DNA of 20,111 nucleotides from a virus (IMGVR_UViG_3300037384_000074:1-20111), one strand, 5' to 3'. Positions 1,974 through 12,297 are shown, counted from the stretch's first letter. The notes: generated from the sequence alone by a model not told the origin. Translations and numbers: made by a program.

Positions 1974-3703
1974 AGCTAGAATTTGACGGAATCAGGTTTC
2001 GAAACCTGCTATCAACAGGCGAAGCCTGGAATGTTATTCCTCTCAACAATGAGAATCTAACTATCATCGTAGGAAAGAATGGCTGTGGTAAGAGCACAAT
2101 CATTGACGCCATTGTATTTGGGTTATTTGGCAAACCTTTCCGAAAGGTTAAAAAGGGTCAGCTAGTCAACTCGATTAACCGCAAAAATTGTATGGTCGAG
2201 ATCGCATTTCGGCGTGGGTCTGATCGATACCTGATCAAGCGCGGCATTAAGCCAAACGTGTTCGAGATTTACAAGAATAAGGAACTGATTCCAGAAGACT
2301 CTCTTGTAGGTACATATCAGTCAATGCTCGAAAATGAGATTATTGGCTGTTCTTACAAGACTTTTTGTCAGATCAATATTCTAGGTAAGTCTGGATATAC
2401 TCCGTATATGCAGCTTGAACCTAAAGATCGACGAATTGTAGTTGATGAATTGCTCGAATCTGGAATCTACACCACTATGCGAGAGCTAGGTGCTGCGGAA
2501 TTGAAGGTTTTGAAGCGAGATTTGGATGAAATCAATGGATCAATCCAGGTTCTAAAAGAGAAAATCATAGGTCAAGAGCGTCTGATCAACCGCCAATCTT
2601 TGGATAAAGAGGAGCAGTTGACTGCTAAGAAGCAGACGATTTCAAATGCAGAACAGCGTTTGAAAGTTATGGAAGATGAACTGACTGAAGCTGAGACTCA
2701 ATACTCGACTGTTAAAAAGGAGCTCGATGATCTAGGTGTTGATGTCAACAAAGTGACGGATATGTACTATGACATCAAGAGCTCAATTTCCTCAGCTGAA
2801 AAGAGCATTAGTGACGCACGTGTTAAGATGAAGCGTGTATTGGCTGACGACTTCTGTCCTTCATGTCTTCAGAAAATCGATGAAAATCATAAAACCCATA
2901 TTGAACAGGATGGGAATAATGAAATTCAACGTAATGAGGTGGAGTGTAAGAAGCTAGAGAAGCGTCTTCAAAAGATTAGCAAGGTTCGAGACCAAATCTC
3001 TAGTGTCGAAGAAAATATTTCAGCGGCCAAGAATCGAGTCAATTCTCTGAAGATCAAGATTCGGACTCAGCAAGATACGATCGGCAATTATGAGGTCGAG
3101 CTACAGGATATGCTTGACCGTAAGGATGTGCAGAACACGGGTGATCTTGAAGAGCTCGAAAATCTTAACGTAGAGCTCGGTAAAATTGTAGATCAATATG
3201 ATTCTAAGGCTGATGAAGTCGACGTCACTAAGCGAGCTCTTGAACACTTAGGTGACGATGGTATTAAGGCTGCATTGATCCAGAAATATGTTCCTAGAAT
3301 CAACGAGTTAATCAACCAGTATTTGGATAACATGAACCTATTTGTTCAGTTTGAATTGGATACTGAATTCAATGAGACGATTAGGTCACGTTATCGTGAC
3401 GATTACACCTATGAGAGTTTTTCGGAAGGTGAAAAACTTCGTATTGATCTAGCAATTATGCTAACTTGGAGGCAGATCGCTCTCCAGCGAAACTCCTCTC
3501 CTACAAATCTACTAATCATGGACGAAATTTTCGATGGTTCCATGGATTACAGTGGCATTTATGACGTAGTTCAAGTGCTAAAGAGTATGAACGATACTAA
3601 AAACGTTTATATTATTACACATAGGTCAGTCGTCAGTGACGAATTGGCAGACAATGTGATCACAGCCGAAAAAATCGGCAACTACACTGAGTATTTAACA
3701 TGA
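1970..3703 (+). CDS. gp46: Recombination ATPase subunit (Rad50/SbcC-like)
   Basis: Walker A GKNGCGKST, coiled coil with CPSC zinc hook, signature FSEGE, Walker B LLIMDE, H-loop ITHR. Confidence 0.95.
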   Translation: MKLEFDGIRFRNLLSTGEAWNVIPLNNENLTIIVGKNGCGKSTIIDAIVFGLFGKPFRKVKKGQLVNSINRKNCMVEIAFRRGSDRYLIKRGIKPNVFEIYKNKELIPEDSLVGTYQSMLENEIIGCSYKTFCQINILGKSGYTPYMQLEPKDRRIVVDELLESGIYTTMRELGAAELKVLKRDLDEINGSIQVLKEKIIGQERLINRQSLDKEEQLTAKKQTISNAEQRLKVMEDELTEAETQYSTVKKELDDLGVDVNKVTDMYYDIKSSISSAEKSISDARVKMKRVLADDFCPSCLQKIDENHKTHIEQDGNNEIQRNEVECKKLEKRLQKISKVRDQISSVEENISAAKNRVNSLKIKIRTQQDTIGNYEVELQDMLDRKDVQNTGDLEELENLNVELGKIVDQYDSKADEVDVTKRALEHLGDDGIKAALIQKYVPRINELINQYLDNMNLFVQFELDTEFNETIRSRYRDDYTYESFSEGEKLRIDLAIMLTWRQIALQRNSSPTNLLIMDEIFDGSMDYSGIYDVVQVLKSMNDTKNVYIITHRSVVSDELADNVITAEKIGNYTEYLT

Positions 3704-4230
3704 CAGAAGAAGAAGCTAAATTTGCTGACCTGCAGAACCAATTCCTCGCTAATATGGAATTGGTTCACTTTGATCAGTTCAATTATGAGTGTGAAAAGGC
3801 AATATTTGATGATACTCAGGGAGCGTTCTCAAATGCCCTGAGTATCACGCGACACAACCTTAAGATTGGATCACTTGCCGCAAATCAGGTAGGATACGAT
3901 CGACGAGTAATCAGTATTGCTGGTATTGACGGTTGTCTTTTCAACCCAGTCTTAGTATATTCATCTGAGGATACTTCCGTTCTGGATGAGGTCAATGTCT
4001 CATATCCAGGACTTAAGGTTAAGATCAAGAGATCGAACACGATTCGTATCCGATATCAGACATTTAATGGTGAGCGAGTTGCTCAGACATATAATGGGCT
4101 TACAGCTCGAGCGATCCTACATGCAATAGATCAGTTGGATGGGGTCTGCTTTATCAATAGAGCAAATAGAATTCACCGCGAACGTGCATTACGTCAATGG
4201 AAAAGGTTTAATAAGCACAATGCAGCCTAA
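3700..4230 (+). CDS. Peptide deformylase homologue, predicted catalytically inactive
   Basis: PDF fold motifs LAANQVG, FNP, SYPG, KIKR, TARAIL..ID.LDG are recognisable. EGCLS reads EVNVS and HEXDH reads HAIDQ. Confidence 0.8.
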   Translation: MTEEEAKFADLQNQFLANMELVHFDQFNYECEKAIFDDTQGAFSNALSITRHNLKIGSLAANQVGYDRRVISIAGIDGCLFNPVLVYSSEDTSVLDEVNVSYPGLKVKIKRSNTIRIRYQTFNGERVAQTYNGLTARAILHAIDQLDGVCFINRANRIHRERALRQWKRFNKHNAA

Positions 4231-4873
4231 GTATAGATCTACCAAGCGATACGGCCATAATCAGGGTCTATCATCCACATTCCGTCAGTGGCGCGCTGAA
4301 GGAACACACTGTAAACTGATTCATGGATATGCACTATCTGTTGAACTAGAATTTGGCACCAATGAACTAGATGAGCGGAATTGGGTTCAAAATTTTGGAG
4401 GTCTCAAGGAAGTCAAGAACTATCTTACTTGGCTTCTTGACCACACTACTGTGGTTGCAGAAGACGATCCTGAAATCGATACTTTCTATGAACTTGATGA
4501 AAAGGGATTGATTGCTCTACGTGTGATCCCTGATGTTGGATGTGAGAAGTTTGCCGAACACATCTTCTATGCAACACTTGCGCTGCTTGATATGAATATT
4601 GTCTCAGATCGAGTTAAGTTGATGTCCGTTCGAGTATGGGAACATGAAGCTAATTCAGCGAGCTTTATCAATCCAATTCTAGACCTACCGGAAGCATCTA
4701 GAAACTGGATCGGTAGTCTTCACAACGCGTTTAAGCAGAATCGTGCACTATTCACTGCTCGAGATTATGAGGTTCTCGATCCTAAGCAATGGGAATCTGA
4801 TATTGAAGTTGCAATCGACCCAGTATCTGCACTAATCGTTGACTACGGTAGGATTGCAGGAGATCTTGACTGA
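4220..4873 (+). CDS. queD: 6-carboxy-5,6,7,8-tetrahydropterin synthase
   Basis: CKLIHGY (CxxxHGH variant), WVQNFGGLK, LDHT, GCEKFAE, VWEHEANSA. Start at ATG 4220, overlapping the PDF end. Confidence 0.88.
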   Translation: MQPKYRSTKRYGHNQGLSSTFRQWRAEGTHCKLIHGYALSVELEFGTNELDERNWVQNFGGLKEVKNYLTWLLDHTTVVAEDDPEIDTFYELDEKGLIALRVIPDVGCEKFAEHIFYATLALLDMNIVSDRVKLMSVRVWEHEANSASFINPILDLPEASRNWIGSLHNAFKQNRALFTARDYEVLDPKQWESDIEVAIDPVSALIVDYGRIAGDLD

Positions 4874-6276
4874 TGTTTGGTCTGAATACTATTGTCGGGA
4901 AATCATACTTTAAAGATGCCGGCGAAAAACTTTACGTAACTTCAATCTTTTATTCAATCCAAGGGGAAGGGCCTCTACGAGGACGTTCGGCAGTATTTGT
5001 TCGACTCGCAAAGTGCAATCTTGGATGCTCGTGGTGTTTCCATGGAAACACTTGGATAACGATGTCAAACGGTTCACGTAAGCGGATTAAGGACATCAAG
5101 ATTGGTGATGAGGTGGTGTCATGGAATGAAGATGCTAATCGATTCGAATCTAAAAAGGTAAGTTATGTTCATCCTACACGTCATGTGGATGAAATCATCC
5201 GACTTCGTACGGGCAAAAGCAACAATCCTAACGAATTAGTATATGTGACAAAGGAACATCCATTCCTTGTAAAAAATAAGGGTTGGGTCAAGGCTGGCGA
5301 TTTGCAGGAAGGTGATGTTCTTCTTCACTTCTCACCATCGGATCGAATGACAATATCCGAATTCATCCATAATGGTGATACCGTTACTAGTGTTGAAGTA
5401 ATTCAGAAGCCAACATCATTTAGTGGCTCCGACGGTAAGGCATGGATCAGACTTGCAGGCGGATCTAAGGATATCGAAGTATACAACTTTGAAACTGAAG
5501 ATAACCACACATATGTTGCAAATGGTAAAATTGTTCATAACTGTGATGCTTTCTTCGAAGATGGGGATTGGCTAACAATTCCTGAAATTATCGAACGAGC
5601 GGGTAAGGAAATCGACAAATATTTCGAGAATCTAGGCAGGGAGACTCCGGATTGGGCTAGTAATAGTGAAAACAGTTGCCGGGAAATTGCGTTCATCCTT
5701 ACTGGCGGCGAACCTACATTGCAGAAGATCAAAGATCTTCTCAATTGGGCATCACTAGAATATAAGTGGACTCAGATTGAATCGAACGGCATTCTCGAGC
5801 CATTAGTCCCTGACAGTACAATTGTAGTAGTATCTCCAAAGTGCATGGAAAAGGTTGACGTTTCCGAAGGGTTTAAGCGTTATATTCCAACTGGATATCT
5901 CAATCCGAACCCGAAGACTCTTGAACGCGCAAGTGTTCTCAAGTTTGTGATGGAAGATCAGCCAGATTTTGACTCTCCTTATCAGACTGTACCTGAGTGG
6001 GCTCATCAGTGGCGTCGAGATACTGGTCGAGATGTTTACGTTTCACCGATGAATATCTATAATCGTGAGCCTAAGAAAGCCCAAGAGATTCGTTCGGGCA
6101 AGAATAAAGCAAGTCTAGAAGAGCGGTCTCTCTATGATGAAGTTGTGTCATTTTGGGAGCCTGGATTGTTTGATATGGAAGCCAACCAACGGAACCATGA
6201 ACATGCTGGCAACTATGCTATCCAGCATGGATTCATATTCCAAATGCAGTTACATCTCTTCTGCTCGAAAGCGTAA
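4873..6276 (+). CDS. queE: 7-carboxy-7-deazaguanine synthase (radical SAM) containing an intein
   Basis: YSIQGEG...FVRLAKCNLGCSW|intein|CD, LTGGEP, IESNG, VVSPK and C-terminal QMQLH. The spliced product would be 298 aa. Confidence 0.9.
   Translation: MFGLNTIVGKSYFKDAGEKLYVTSIFYSIQGEGPLRGRSAVFVRLAKCNLGCSWCFHGNTWITMSNGSRKRIKDIKIGDEVVSWNEDANRFESKKVSYVHPTRHVDEIIRLRTGKSNNPNELVYVTKEHPFLVKNKGWVKAGDLQEGDVLLHFSPSDRMTISEFIHNGDTVTSVEVIQKPTSFSGSDGKAWIRLAGGSKDIEVYNFETEDNHTYVANGKIVHNCDAFFEDGDWLTIPEIIERAGKEIDKYFENLGRETPDWASNSENSCREIAFILTGGEPTLQKIKDLLNWASLEYKWTQIESNGILEPLVPDSTIVVVSPKCMEKVDVSEGFKRYIPTGYLNPNPKTLERASVLKFVMEDQPDFDSPYQTVPEWAHQWRRDTGRDVYVSPMNIYNREPKKAQEIRSGKNKASLEERSLYDEVVSFWEPGLFDMEANQRNHEHAGNYAIQHGFIFQMQLHLFCSKA
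5035..5541 (+). mobile_element. Mini-intein (169 aa, no endonuclease domain) in QueE
   Basis: Begins CFHGNTWITM (block A), TKEHPF (block B TxxH), VYNFETEDNHTYVAN (block F), ends IVHN followed by the +1 Cys. Removal restores CxxxCxxC. Confidence 0.95.
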
Positions 6277-8404: not shown

Positions 8405-9289
8405 TTGCTAAACTTTTGCGCTATCTGCCCAACCCCTCATCTCGATCTGGTGAAGGGTCGGAAGGCCAATCTAACATTGGCACATCTGGTCGATACTGAC
8501 CCTGAATACCGTGAATGGTATAAGAACAATCCCACTGAAATCCACATCATGGATAATTCTGCATTTGAGTTGAATCAGCAGGGATTGCCGTTATTTGATG
8601 GCAATCGTCTTGACGATCTAGCTTTGTCGGTGGGTGCAAACTACGTTGTAATGACAGATGCTCCTGGCCAGTCATCTGATGTTACAGAAAACTTTGCTCG
8701 ATTTCAAGGTAAGAGACTCAAGAGTAAGGGACTAGGTACCTTCTTTGTGCCTCAGAGTTACCGCGGCAAGATCGGCGACTTGATCAATTCATTCATCTGG
8801 GGACTAACTAATCCCGACATCGACTATGTTGCTCTAAGCATCCTATCTGCTCCAAATGCATTCACTCGTTCAGACATTTCAGATAATGCTAAAATGATGA
8901 CAAGGTATCTTTCTCGATATCATTTCATGCGATTGCTTGAAAAGGAAATCAAGGAAGAGTTTGGAATTAGTGCGAGATCTCTGAAAGAAAAGCATAACAA
9001 GAAGATCCATTTTCTTGGGATGACCGAAGGTCCCAACGAAATTGAACTAATGTCACACGTTGACATCCCAATTGACACATGGGATAGTAGTGCTCCGATG
9101 TGGTATGGTCTTCGTGGTCGTAAACGATTTGACCCTAATTCGGTTACTGGTTTGCCAGACGGCAAGTATACTGAACATGTCGATTTTAACTATAGAACAA
9201 ATATCGAGGAGGCTAGAAATATAGCTCTCGACAACCTCGAATATATTGACAACTTAGTACAGGACTATAATGACAGAGTCAACCCTTGA
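8405..9289 (+). CDS. dpdA: TGT/DpdA-like TIM-barrel deazaguanine transferase (subfamily uncertain, DpdA3-like suspected)
   Basis: IMDNSAFE (TGT DSGGFQ-like), KIHFLG, DTWDSSAP (archaeal TGT DxFDS-like); located within the folE/queD/queE cluster. Confidence 0.72.
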   Translation: MLNFCAICPTPHLDLVKGRKANLTLAHLVDTDPEYREWYKNNPTEIHIMDNSAFELNQQGLPLFDGNRLDDLALSVGANYVVMTDAPGQSSDVTENFARFQGKRLKSKGLGTFFVPQSYRGKIGDLINSFIWGLTNPDIDYVALSILSAPNAFTRSDISDNAKMMTRYLSRYHFMRLLEKEIKEEFGISARSLKEKHNKKIHFLGMTEGPNEIELMSHVDIPIDTWDSSAPMWYGLRGRKRFDPNSVTGLPDGKYTEHVDFNYRTNIEEARNIALDNLEYIDNLVQDYNDRVNP

Positions 9290-10145
9290 TAAGGGTCTCG
9301 ATTGAGACCCAATCGGAATCTGTTAACCTCACTGAGCATGGAAATTCAGGTACCATTTTTCCAGTTCTTCGAAATATTTTCTGACGTATAGCTCCAGGAC
9401 TTACCTTTAGGTGTTTAGCCAAATCTGGAAACACTTTGAAAGATATAATACTTCTACTAGAAGTATTATATAGAATCAGGTTGTGATTAGAATTTTCACG
9501 TTTGAAAGTTCTCGACCATTCACTGAATAATTTACGTGATTCGAGAGTTTTCTTGTGGTCACTATTAATAGGATGAGGCTTTCCTAGCCGAGATAGACGA
9601 ATATTCTCTCGTCGTTCAGCAGAACAGGGTCCCCTAGGCTTTCGTAGTTTTGATTTTGATTCTTCCGATCGAAGTCTGCTAGTGTTTGGTTTGAAACCGT
9701 TCTCGATAAGAAAGCAAATTCGATCCAAATCATTAACATTACAATTTGTTAGTTTGTCGGAAACTTCATTATAGAATTTTATTCTCTTTTGACCCCTTGT
9801 GGGATGATTGATTGTGAAGTTTTCGCGATACATGCGTCTTGCAATATCATATGTTGTTGCATTACTATATCTCAACATTCCTGTTGAGGAACAATTCATC
9901 ATTGCTAAAGCTTTTACCATTTGGAAATATTCTCTAGTATTAGGAATTAGCATTTTAACTAGTAAACGATGGGCGATGTAATGTTCTTTTGCTGTAAACT
10001 TAACTAAGTTCGATAAATCGTTAGATCCACCCATCGATTTAGGAATAATATGATGTCGCTCATGGTAACGGCTTTCAGTGGTTTTAATTGATCTAGACGT
10101 ACAGAGATCAAAATAGAATTTAGTGTATTTGTTAGCTAAAAACAT
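9279..10145 (-). mobile_element. Free-standing HNH homing endonuclease with NUMOD3-like repeats (Mob-like)
   Basis: ERHHIIPKSMGGSNDLSNLVKFTAKEHYIAHRLL HNH motif; RSEESKSKL and SAERRENI NUMOD3-like segments; antisense to its neighbours and AT-rich. Confidence 0.88.
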
Positions 10146-10171: not shown

Positions 10172-10450
10172 TTGAATATTTATAAATTTAAAGAGGACGA
10201 AGTACTTAGAGAGGTAGCAGAATATCTTGAAAAGACTTATAAATCTCATTACGTAGACAATAATAATCGTCAATTGATGGAAGATATTGTTGATGAAGGC
10301 GATGCTATTCCATTTTGTAGATGGAATAGCATCAAGTACCTTAGGCGATATGGTAAAAAGAATGGATTCAATAGGGATGACCTTTTGAAATCCTTACACT
10401 ATTGTATTATTATGCTTGGTGTAACAAAAGATAATAAACCTCACAATTAA
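10172..10450 (+). CDS. DUF3310-family protein (T7 gp1.7-like putative dNMP kinase)
   Basis: YKFKE...HY...FCRWNSIKYLRRYGKKNG...DLLKSLHY matches the DUF3310 GNxxKYxxRxxxK...DLxKAxxY pattern; AAGGAG RBS. Confidence 0.75.
   Translation: MNIYKFKEDEVLREVAEYLEKTYKSHYVDNNNRQLMEDIVDEGDAIPFCRWNSIKYLRRYGKKNGFNRDDLLKSLHYCIIMLGVTKDNKPHN
10177..10184 (-). promoter_or_regulatory. T4 late promoter TATAAATA for the minus-strand HNH gene
   Basis: Plus strand reads TATTTATA inside DUF3310 codons 2-5; about 32 nt upstream of the HNH ATG at 10145. Confidence 0.65.
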
Positions 10451-10462
10451 GGCCTACAATTA

Positions 10463-10546
10463 ATGACAATGGTCAACATTGCATCTGACCAGTCTGGGTC
10501 AGTGCTTTCAAAATTCAAGTTTGAGGATGTACAGCCAAATGCATAA
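10463..10546 (+). pseudogene. Orphaned original 5' end of the dUTPase gene (MTMVNIASDQSGSVLSKFKFEDVQPNA*)
   Basis: 27-codon ORF ending in QPNA, the motif that precedes IDLRL in the downstream dUTPase; CAGCCAAATGC is duplicated at 10532-10542 and 11253-11263. Confidence 0.8.
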
Positions 10547-10569
10547 ATATCTCGAAGGAGAATTTATGT
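10541..10569 (+). promoter_or_regulatory. RBS-sequestering hairpin with an embedded late promoter (CATAAATA 10542-10549)
   Basis: GCATAAAT(A)TCTC-GAAG-GAGA-ATTTATGT forms a 12-bp stem with one bulge that covers the GGAG RBS and the start of the GTG codon. Confidence 0.75.
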
Positions 10570-11209
10570 GGCAAATTATCGAAAAATCTGGGAAGAAGCT
10601 AATGGGCCCATTCCGGTAGACGACAGTGGACGAAGTTTCGAGATCCATCATATAGATGGTGATAGAGAGAACAACGCAATAGATAATCTTCAATGCGTTA
10701 GTGTGTTCGACCACTTCTTTATTCATCATGAAAAGGGCGATGTTGCTGCTTGTCTTTTGATGATATATCGTCTTGAAATGGAAGATGACCCACTTTTCAA
10801 AATTTTGAAATCGGAGATATCGAGAGAGTCAAATCGTAGACGACTGGCTAATGGAACGCATAATTTTCTGAAACCTGAACATCATCACAAAGTTAAGGTC
10901 ACCCAGAAAAGATTGTATAGTGAAGGTAAACACCATTTTTGTAATGGGCAGACTGAAAGGGGTCAGAAGTCGGCTCAGTCACGTTTCAAAATGTGGAAGT
11001 CTGGAACAGATGATGAATTCTTTAGCCTCCTAGGAGGATATAAGTTATATCGTACATTTAGACTCAAAAATGGAAAAATGCATCAAGCCCCGAGTAGTAT
11101 AGTGATGCAGGCAATTAATTACCGGTTTGATGGCGAAGAAAGTAAAGTTGTCGCTGCGATTCAACGAATATACGGAACAGATGATTACACATATTCTATC
11201 GGAAAATAG
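10568..11209 (+). mobile_element. Free-standing HNH homing endonuclease, I-TevIII-like
   Basis: N-terminus NYRKIWEEANGPIPVDDSGRSFEIHHIDGDRENNAIDNL closely resembles I-TevIII as recalled; has NGTHNFL and EGKHHFC repeats; GTG start after a GAAGGAG RBS. Confidence 0.88.
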
Positions 11210-11699
11210 TACCAGTAAGATCCTCAAAGAGGAAATCAATCCTAAAGATTGCCAGCCAAATGCTATTGATCTGAGACTTGACCAGGTCTTTAGAGTTGAA
11301 CCTACGATGTTTGCTTTGACCGAGGACAACAAGGTTAATCGTGAACGAGTATTGATTGAGCCAAACGTGCTCGAGATCTATCATCTCCCGAAGGGTGTTT
11401 ACGAAATCACTTTCGATTCGGAAGTGGATATTGGTAGTGACGAAGCGGGACTGATTGTTCCGCGCAGCACACTTAACAGGAACGGCGTTTTCATCACTTC
11501 TGGTCTTTGGGATTCAGGGTATAATGGCGTTCTTGGTGCAGCATTGCACAATTATGGCGGCCCAATGCTTGTGAAGCGTGGAACTCGCCTAGCTCAGCTC
11601 GTCATTTGGAAGGCTGAATCACTATTCGATTACAAGGGACAGTATGGTCGCAATGAAGACGGAACTGCTAAAGAAGAAGAGAAGAGATATCATGTATAA
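11181..11699 (+). CDS. dut: Trimeric dUTPase / dCTP-deaminase-family protein
   Basis: QPNAIDLRL, PRSTLNRNG, WDSGYNG, GTRLAQL, YKGQYG. Start placed at ATG 11181 (MITHIL). The deaminase Glu appears absent (VLGAALHN), which favours dUTPase activity. Confidence 0.8.
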   Translation: MITHILSENSTSKILKEEINPKDCQPNAIDLRLDQVFRVEPTMFALTEDNKVNRERVLIEPNVLEIYHLPKGVYEITFDSEVDIGSDEAGLIVPRSTLNRNGVFITSGLWDSGYNGVLGAALHNYGGPMLVKRGTRLAQLVIWKAESLFDYKGQYGRNEDGTAKEEEKRYHV

Positions 11700-12297
11700 T
11701 TTTGAAATGCCACGGCTCAATGGTTGGGCCAATGAGATCTACTCAAATAACGTCAACGCGGGTTGGTGGAAGAAGGATATCGATGGCCTTGTCATCCCAC
11801 GTAATGTTGGTGAGCTTTTAGCTCTTGTTCACTCGGAAGTATCTGAAGCTCATTTTGGCCTAACAGGGCCAGGTGTAGTGTACGATGATCATCTTACTCA
11901 TCGTGAGATGTACGAAGTTGAAATGGCAGATGCAGTAATTCGCATTCTTGATATTACCGGCCATTACCGGATTGACGTCGACGCAGTCATCTCGGAATAT
12001 GAGACTCATTACGACGGTCGTTGGGTCATGTCGTCACTTACTGAGCAGATCGCTTACATCCACACTGAGATCTCTAATGCTCTTGAAGGAGCTCGTAAGA
12101 ATGCTCCAAGTAAGATCATTCCTTCTCGTACTGCTTTTGAAGTTTCACTTGCCGCAACTCTAGTACGTATCATCCACACTTGTGATGATCAGAATCTTGA
12201 CCTTATGGGGGCTCTTCAGGAGAAGTTCAACTATAACAAGAGTCGAGCTGATCACAAGTTGGAAAATCGTGCTGCCGCAGGTGGCAAGCAGTTTTGA
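11692..12297 (+). CDS. MazG-like nucleotide pyrophosphohydrolase with an internal tandem duplication
   Basis: Repeat 1: LALVHSEVSEA...EVEMADAVIRILD. Repeat 2: IAYIHTEISNA...EVSLAATLVRIIH. C-terminal EKFNYNKSR. Start at ATG 11692. Confidence 0.8.
   Translation: MYNFEMPRLNGWANEIYSNNVNAGWWKKDIDGLVIPRNVGELLALVHSEVSEAHFGLTGPGVVYDDHLTHREMYEVEMADAVIRILDITGHYRIDVDAVISEYETHYDGRWVMSSLTEQIAYIHTEISNALEGARKNAPSKIIPSRTAFEVSLAATLVRIIHTCDDQNLDLMGALQEKFNYNKSRADHKLENRAAAGGKQF

Follow-up and report, generated by a model that had tools for sequence, protein, structure and literature searches.

A homing endonuclease gene is commonly considered to depend on an intron, an intein, or an intergenic site if the gene that it invades is to be spared. 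The locus described here raises the question of how a free-standing HNH endonuclease gene comes to lie within a conserved coding motif of a DCD/dUTPase-like gene (dcd) that is present at full length. The locus belongs to a 136-kb T4-like phage genome, of which the first 20 kb (20,111 nucleotides; hereafter the window) were analysed, and clamp-loader, RegA, and 7-deazaguanine genes are found in the same region of the window. The features of the locus are as follows:

10172-10450, + strand: DUF3310 gene, the native upstream flank (Pfam DUF3310, E=8e-6; 72% nucleotide identity to positions 5720-5971 of the related contig L001)
10463-10546, + strand: orphan ORF, the native first 27 codons of dcd plus a TAA stop; ends EDVQPNA and is contiguous with the native upstream flank
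10532-10542, + strand: left copy of the QPNA-coding motif CAGCCAAATGC; homology to the native gene stops at 10542
10542-10549, + strand: CATAAATA, a candidate T4-type late-promoter box; the TAA of the orphan (10544-10546) lies inside it
10554-10560, + strand: Shine-Dalgarno-like GAAGGAG for the HNH gene, read from the sequence, 7 nt before the GTG at 10568
10568-11209, + strand: free-standing HNH_3 homing endonuclease gene (Pfam HNH_3), 213 amino acids, GTG start
11181-11263, + strand: replacement 5' end of dcd, 28 codons ending CQPNA, foreign to the lineage
11253-11263, + strand: right copy of the QPNA-coding motif, within the functional gene; an exact repeat of the left copy
11264-11393, + strand: dcd codons 29-71, either a co-converted foreign tract or a hypervariable native segment; without blastn match to L001
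11394-11699, + strand: native dcd body, codons 72-172 plus stop (74% nucleotide and 83% amino acid identity to L001/P0002)

The full-length dcd ORF extends from the ATG at 11181 to 11699 and encodes 172 amino acids. The features that an initial annotation of this DNA had reported were confirmed, namely the 27-codon orphan ending in EDVQPNA and a TAA (10463-10546), the new ATG at 11181 that overlaps the final 29 nt of the HNH gene, the position of the orphan's stop codon inside the box CATAAATA, and an 11-nt direct repeat for which removal of one copy together with the intervening DNA leaves an in-frame gene. An additional ATG at 10566, near the GTG start of the HNH gene, is out of frame. Even when one mismatch was allowed, CAGCCAAATGC was found exactly twice in the window, at 10532-10542 and 11253-11263, and it forms the core of a 31-nt imperfect direct repeat with 71% identity and a spacing of 721 nt. 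The HNH ORF takes up all of these 721 nt except 25 nt and 54 nt. The CAG codons of both copies are in frame with their own ORFs (offsets of 69 and 72 nt), so that deletion of 10543-11263 yields an in-frame gene.

The same in-frame deletion would be expected if the 721 nt between the repeats were a self-splicing intron, or were otherwise removed from the RNA, with the orphan as exon 1, and phage group I introns often house HNH genes (PMC2988022). Rfam searches of the whole window at the gathering score and of positions 10300-11500 at E<=10 returned two chance sRNA matches only (E>3), with no intron family in 10300-11500 even at the permissive threshold and no conserved group I ribozyme core. 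Group I splicing calls for a U at the end of exon 1 and a G at the end of the intron. Any register placed within a direct repeat makes these two terminal bases identical, so this U/G rule cannot hold, and the outer registers of the repeat give A/C and C/C. Moreover, the DNA between the repeats includes a complete, homologue-like dcd start, and relatives share the HNH-dcd layout without any exon 1. Contigs from four sequencing runs, in which cover of the locus is patchy, contained no joint across 10542/11264, and hence neither an HNH-less nor a spliced form, and none of the runs listed for this DNA was an RNA run. The proposal of the initial annotation that the gene had been invaded without splicing is thus upheld by the lack of an intron family, the failure of the splice rules, and the relatives that have no upstream exon, and we consider an intron at this site extremely improbable.

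We then compared both dcd starts with those of relatives. The closest homologue of the resident protein is P0002, encoded on the 76-kb contig L001, which is gene-for-gene syntenic with the window and lacks both the HNH gene at 10568 and the second HNH gene of the window at 9279-10145. The initial annotation had pointed to the N-termini of HNH-less relatives as a check, and these proved to be of the orphan type: in L001, an uninterrupted dcd gene, whose product (P0002) starts MTMINVAS, begins 13 nt downstream of the DUF3310 gene, and the product of another HNH-less relative (L003/P0003) starts MIVNIAS. In the DNA alignment, the window and L001 match across DUF3310 and the orphan as far as the GC of the QPNA codons, beyond which they diverge. 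The orphan is 62% identical in nucleotides and 52% in amino acids to the L001/P0002 start, compared with 41% and 32%, respectively, to the resident start, and when it was used as a query among 111 homologue N-termini, P0002 ranked first with a score of 57. By these comparisons, the orphan is recognizable as the native gene start of dcd. The presence or absence of the HNH gene is accordingly polymorphic at the same site in syntenic genomes (L001 without it, the window with it), and a second pair of this kind is formed by L004-6, without the HNH gene, and L007-10, with it.

The resident gene combines two affinities. Its body (codons 72-172) is 83% identical to that of P0002, the best value among the 111 homologues, whereas its start scores only 4 against the P0002 start. 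The best matches of the resident start, MITHILSENSTSKIL, which ends in CQPNA, are starts of the MIHIL/MKHIL type from proteins whose bodies share only 52-55% identity with the resident one. It is also 43-45% identical to the HNH-linked dcd start of L007, which begins MMKHILSSNSETKL and likewise ends in CQPNA; the resident start is of the HNH-linked type, different from that of P0002, which agrees with the replacement N-terminus proposed in the initial annotation. This phylogenetic discordance marks the resident gene start as foreign and the body as native. The motif at which the two meet is highly conserved, the Q, N, and A of QPNA being invariant and the P at least 90% conserved among 37 homologues.

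The two ends of the foreign DNA differ in how closely they can be placed. The 11-nt repeat noted in the initial annotation marks the left side, where native homology stops at 10542, but on the right side it need not be a boundary. Codons 29-71 of dcd are 44% identical to P0002 at the amino acid level, compared to 83% downstream, and blastn similarity to L001 picks up again only at 11394, so that foreign DNA may continue beyond the right repeat. The same codons show 44-49% identity to native relatives and 23-42% identity to the others compared. Because they are hypervariable across the whole family and their third codon positions are saturated, the right-hand edge can be placed only as a range, somewhere between 11264 and about 11393.

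We further assessed the HNH gene and its association with dcd. The HNH protein matches Pfam HNH_3 (E=1.8e-12; 47.1 bits, cut-off 24.8) and the PHROG family 'intron-like DNA endonuclease' (E=6e-31), and it keeps all 33 invariant columns of a 13-member alignment, including residues H27, H28, D30, N35, N36, N40, H49, and H53, and its HNH catalytic motif is intact. Its full-length homologues are 37-51% identical to it. Genomic contexts of the HNH gene were available from eight other lineages (L007-10, L011/L095, L015-16, L012-13, L175, L176, L179, and L017). In seven of the eight, a complete dcd gene follows the HNH gene directly, its start overlapping the HNH 3' end, and in L017 the contig stops just inside the dcd gene. 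The location of this HNH family directly upstream of dcd, overlapping its start, in every locus with readable downstream sequence is a new observation of this study. In all loci, 676-688 nt separate the HNH NYRK codon from the QPNA codons; the upstream neighbour of the cassette varies by lineage and is DUF3310, a dGTP-diphosphohydrolase-like gene, or a gene of 205-226 amino acids after queC.

The dcd alleles of these loci show the start/body discordance that accompanies co-conversion of flanking sequence with an HNH gene. In the syntenic pair L004 (without HNH) and L007 (with HNH), the dcd bodies are 71% identical and the starts only 27%, with no orphan present; this discordance is that of L007 versus P0004. 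Where dcd is linked to an HNH gene, conservation is higher in the start than in the body (for example, 91% and 77% between L175 and L176), whereas in the native-type alleles compared the start is the more variable part (about 32% vs 70% between P0002 and P0003). The gene start therefore travels with the nuclease gene. The earlier proposal that the element carries a diverged 5' end of its target is thereby corroborated, as the HNH gene and the overlapping dcd start recur as a unit in other phages.

No HNH donor closer than about 50% identity was found, and the event can thus be neither dated nor traced. The GenBank phage collection, searched with both DNA and protein, contained no close relative, the best dcd match being 47% identical (Rhizobium phage RHph_I1_18). 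IMG/VR gave no match to the dcd protein and, when searched with the HNH alignment, one true family member, on the same contig as L011. The JGI metagenomes yielded three further members (L015-L017), and the remaining matches there share the nuclease domain only. A match in Aeromonas phage Ahp1 with two of the features was rejected as an ordinary 4-nt gene overlap.

With these contexts in hand, two other origins of the layout can be weighed. The 31-nt imperfect repeat common to both copies of the start could reflect a duplication of the gene start within the lineage, with the HNH gene landing later between the copies, in which case the start would not have been supplied by the element. However, the two starts have only 32% amino acid and 41% nucleotide identity outside the motif and affiliate with different clades, and the replacement start overlaps the HNH 3' end just as in seven other lineages that have no duplication. 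A close relative with near-identical tandem starts and no HNH gene is absent among the many relatives sampled, which further weakens this explanation, and we regard it as very unlikely. The assembly is of the metagenome type, and an 11-nt repeat could in principle mislead an assembler into joining two co-occurring phage strains. Usual assembly k-mers are longer than 11 nt, though, and the right-hand layout is the norm for the HNH-dcd family. The exact dcd protein is found on two contigs and the exact HNH protein on another. In addition, a 173-nt contig from a 2013 hydrocarbon metagenome, obtained in an independent study, spans the left junction from 10443 to 10615 (100 nt plus 73 nt) and argues against an assembly chimera, to which we assign almost no probability.

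Upstream of the HNH gene, the relatives share a further element. In L011, L015/16, L012/13, L175, L176, and L179, the HNH ORF is preceded by TTATAAATAT, 3 nt, and the sequence CA(A/G)CC(N)AA(C/T)G(C/T), a copy of the QPNA motif with its start exactly 31 nt upstream of the NYRK codon. A similar but weaker copy is present in L017, 42 nt upstream of the NYRK codon. L007 has no upstream copy, and the copy is thus not universal. The presence of a QPNA-motif copy beside a late-promoter box before the HNH gene in six of seven other lineages is the second new observation made here. The upstream copies are 10-11 nt long and match the resident QPNA motif of their own locus at 8-11 of 11 positions, and their agreement was compared with that of null windows:

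L012: 10/11 match to its own resident motif; 0 of 2401 null windows do as well
L175: 10/11 match to its own resident motif; 0 of 1104 null windows do as well
L179: 9/11 match to its own resident motif; 0 of 640 null windows do as well
L011: 8/11 match to its own resident motif; 25 of 1970 null windows do as well
L176: 8/11 match to its own resident motif; 44 of 724 null windows do as well
L017: 8/11 match to its own resident motif; 2 of 238 null windows do as well

Across the motif copies, including the left copy of the window, the variable positions are 3, 6, 9, and 11 and are mostly wobble-equivalent. The two copies of each genome gave no clear signal of concerted evolution (wobble agreement of 3/3, 3/3, 2/3, 2/3, 1/3, and 0/3). 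A conserved mini-ORF over the upstream copy was considered and dismissed, as it occurs in L012 and L176 (MQPNV) and is absent from L011, L175, and L179. An IMG/VR pattern search for the late-promoter box plus the motif produced 36 matches, of which 35 were unrelated coding sequence and one was the known L011 contig.

When the regions upstream of the HNH genes are aligned, the left repeat of the window falls on the motif copy of the relatives, and orphan codons take the place of the promoter box. The left repeat named in the initial annotation is thus present at the junction but is not unique to the event, since relatives carry the same copy upstream of HNH. On the simplest reading, the left joint of the window would have formed within this motif copy, so that the recipient's whole gene start was kept and the upstream promoter box of the donor was lost. 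The late-promoter box lies upstream of the motif copy in the relatives and downstream of it in the window. Within the genome, five of the 12 copies of CATAAATA lie at most 45 nt upstream of a Shine-Dalgarno sequence and an ORF of at least 60 amino acids, similar to the five of nine for TATAAATA; L007 likewise has CATAAATA upstream of its HNH gene. Use of the box at 10542-10549 as the late promoter of the HNH gene is plausible.

Taken as a whole, the evidence largely supports the interpretation given in the initial annotation. It is highly probable that an HNH cassette with a foreign dcd 5' end was copied into a native dcd gene at the QPNA-coding DNA and that the native start was left behind as the orphan. 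Besides the HNH gene, the cassette would contain at least 28 codons from the start of a foreign dcd allele, which overlap the HNH 3' end. The nuclease would cleave dcd alleles that lack the HNH gene, in or close to the QPNA codons, and repair would draw on an HNH-carrying phage, with the right-hand crossover falling in the dcd body between 11264 and about 11394 and the left-hand joint forming at the short QPNA-motif copy of the cassette rather than in the upstream gene, which would preserve the recipient's gene start. With the foreign first codons overlapping the HNH 3' end, dcd is of full length and would be translated from its own ATG at 11181, and no splicing would be needed. The native target would now be split, its left half remaining with the orphan and its right half being joined to a foreign left half; because of this physical separation the resident allele should be protected from cutting, and its immunity is plausible from the arrangement. 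The 11-nt recombination arm is very short, which counts against this mechanism.

The state of the orphan itself bears on whether it is a dead remnant. The independent contig across the left junction differs from the window at 10522, 10525, and 10531, and all three differences are third-position synonymous transitions in the orphan frame (roughly p=0.04 by estimate). They could mean that the orphan is under selection, which counts against reading it simply as dead, and it might be kept, for example, as a small peptide or as a leader ORF that feeds ribosomes to the HNH start 21 nt downstream. In line with this alternative, the orphan ORF is intact in its native upstream context and shares a single reading frame with the HNH gene, with one TAA between them; it is also no more diverged from native starts, to which it is 50-55% identical, than these are from each other, at 32-36% identity. 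However, there are just three changes, confined to a 10-nt patch 11-20 nt from the junction, and exchange with HNH-less relatives by recombination, or two independent invasions into native alleles that differed slightly, would also account for them. A 27-codon ORF would be open by chance about one-quarter of the time, and in six other lineages the orphan has been lost save for the motif. We thus consider maintenance of the orphan by selection unlikely, although distinctly less so than an intron, a duplication, or a chimera, and retain the replacement of the dcd start by the HNH cassette as the preferred explanation.

The closest published analogue found for this replacement is the mORF gene hybrids of fungal mitochondria, in atp6 of Allomyces macrogynus and in atp6, atp9, cox2, and nad3 of Glomus (PMC3630166). 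In these hybrids, the foreign gene end that arrives with the endonuclease ORF is C-terminal, and the native one is left downstream (PMC3630166). As in the window, the endonuclease ORF sits in a conserved coding region, the foreign end is in frame, the native end is a remnant, and the inserted and native ends cluster with different relatives. The window shows this arrangement as a mirror image, with the 5' end replaced and the remnant upstream, in contrast to the 3' end and downstream remnant of the hybrids. Replacement of the N-terminus means that the cassette must also provide a translation start, which is placed inside the HNH 3' end. The two systems further differ in that the window involves a phage and an HNH_3 nuclease, rather than mitochondria and a LAGLIDADG or GIY-YIG enzyme, and in that its cassette also has a second short copy of the target motif beside the promoter.

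Intronless homing in T4 provides a second comparison, exemplified by MobE and by SegF, which lies between soc and gene 56 and targets gene 56 (PMC2988022). SegF and MobE share with the window a free-standing endonuclease beside its presumed target, a presence/absence polymorphism, and co-converted flanks; in contrast, both crossovers in T4 fall in flanking homology, and a duplicated gene end or orphan is not mentioned (PMC2988022). Genes split by endonucleases are known as Aeh1 nrdA/mobE, T4 genes 39/60 with mobA, and phage 25 gene 43 (PMC2988022). In these cases, too, a conserved coding region harbours a gene of the HNH or Seg type and neither an intron nor an intein is involved, but the split genes give two polypeptides that reassemble, whereas the downstream ORF of the window is complete alone and the upstream piece is redundant. 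Our search of the open-access literature found no example from a phage in which a gene start next to a homing endonuclease had been replaced.

By analogy, the upstream motif copy may be an operator of the I-TevI type. The autorepression operator of I-TevI is a homing-site look-alike that overlaps the late promoter of the endonuclease gene (PMC2988022). In six relatives of the window (L011, L012, L175, L176, L179, and L017), a copy of the presumed target that matches at 8-10 of 11 positions lies 3 nt after TATAAATAT and 31-42 nt before the HNH coding start, which may correspond to this arrangement. The known operators belong to intron-encoded GIY-YIG or HNH enzymes and show similarity over 15/20 nt, compared to 10-11 nt and a free-standing nuclease at the HNH-dcd loci. 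In the window itself, unlike in the I-TevI operator and the relatives, the promoter box upstream of the motif is replaced by orphan codons. The motif copy might serve as an operator, a recombination arm, or both, or be merely a scar. A bolder version holds that it is both an autorepression site mimicking the homing site and a built-in left recombination arm, such that a cassette bracketed by direct repeats of its own target enters any dcd gene and leaves each time a full orphan, which is later trimmed to the motif. We advance this version tentatively and lean against it. If it were true, the cassette could enter any dcd gene whatever its upstream neighbour, and a full orphan, as in the window, would later be cut back to the motif, as in L011, L012, L175, L176, and L179. 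Homing-site-mimic autorepression, shown so far for the intron-encoded I-TevI, may extend to free-standing HNH enzymes.

The locus points to a further route of invasion in phage, caught at an early stage: an element equipped with a spare gene start is able to occupy a conserved coding motif. Its particular value lies in the combination of an intact full-length orphan, matched relatives with and without the HNH gene, and a conserved motif copy at the nuclease promoter, and the loci without HNH, with a full orphan, and with an 11-nt remnant would represent a natural time course of this route. In annotation and phylogeny, this means that a stretch of 28 to 71 codons at the start of such genes can have a history of its own, and that a short orphan ORF next to a nuclease gene can be a gene end and not noise.

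The resident dcd protein was also examined in its own right. Despite its chimeric make-up, its structural model is confident (mean pLDDT 95.4), including residues 1-28 (93-96), in keeping with the preferred explanation. The protein matches the superfamily profiles Pfam DCD (E=5e-18; 66.1 bits, cut-off 27) and Pfam dUTPase (E=6.6e-11; 42.5 bits, cut-off 22), and it scores 99.5 bits against the dUTPase equivalog NCBIfam PRK02253, below the cut-off of 130. 'dUTPase' is accordingly used as a working name only for the predicted product of the resident gene, whose best solved relative is 9w59, a 'probable dUTPase' (E=1e-11).

The window contains a second homing endonuclease gene, placed between a 294-aa gene and the DUF3310 gene and oriented opposite to them:

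9279-10145, minus strand, second homing endonuclease gene (Pfam HNH, E=2e-5; PHROG 'homing endonuclease', E=3e-32)

No counterpart of this gene is present at the syntenic locus of L001, a relative contig with an uninterrupted dcd (DCD/dUTPase-like) gene, where the DUF3310 gene lies only 11 nt from the 294-aa gene. L001, which lacks both HNH genes of the window, has additional genes of its own at other sites, namely 1839-2465, 3610-4398, and 8650-9357; two of them code for a NUMOD3 protein and a DUF559/Vsr-like protein, and one is a minus-strand gene of 235 aa. All three sites coincide with gaps in the alignment to the window, and thus the endonuclease content is mosaic between L001 and the window phages. 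In L011, another lineage with an HNH_3 gene directly upstream of dcd, a second HNH_3 gene (5190-5840) directly follows dcd, which is therefore flanked by an endonuclease gene on either side.

The HNH gene upstream of dcd in a further lineage, L007, is not preceded by a copy of the QPNA-coding motif (region 3960-4003). Its place is taken by CATAAATA and then by a hairpin with a 9-bp stem that ends 1 nt upstream of the ATG of the HNH gene; by analogy, this hairpin is reminiscent of the T4 hairpins that repress translation of endonuclease genes in early transcripts.

In the window, the 27-codon orphan ORF (the native dcd start) and the HNH ORF share one reading frame across 10463-10620, with a single TAA between them, and the order is QPNA, stop, ISRRRIYV, and then ANYRKIW. 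The shared frame is probably due to chance (one in three), and read-through or termination-reinitiation coupling between the two ORFs is conceivable. An exact 12-nt direct repeat, GGAACAGATGAT, occurs at 11003-11014, within the HNH gene, and at 11174-11185, where it includes the dcd start codon; this repeat is possibly a chance occurrence.

Downstream, dcd is followed by a pyrophosphatase gene:

11644-12297, plus strand, MazG-like pyrophosphatase, listed as a 217-aa ORF (PHROG 5658, E=4e-57)

Translation of this gene probably begins at an internal ATG, at 11692; the resulting 8-nt overlap with the dcd stop equals that in L001 (201 aa).

Near-identical pieces of the window phage, with 1 to 4 differences in each 170-230 nt, were present in run X2, a 2013 hydrocarbon metagenome. 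The piece covering the left joint of the HNH gene at 10542 (window 10443-10615) has three listed differences, all within 10 nt of one another and just left of this junction.
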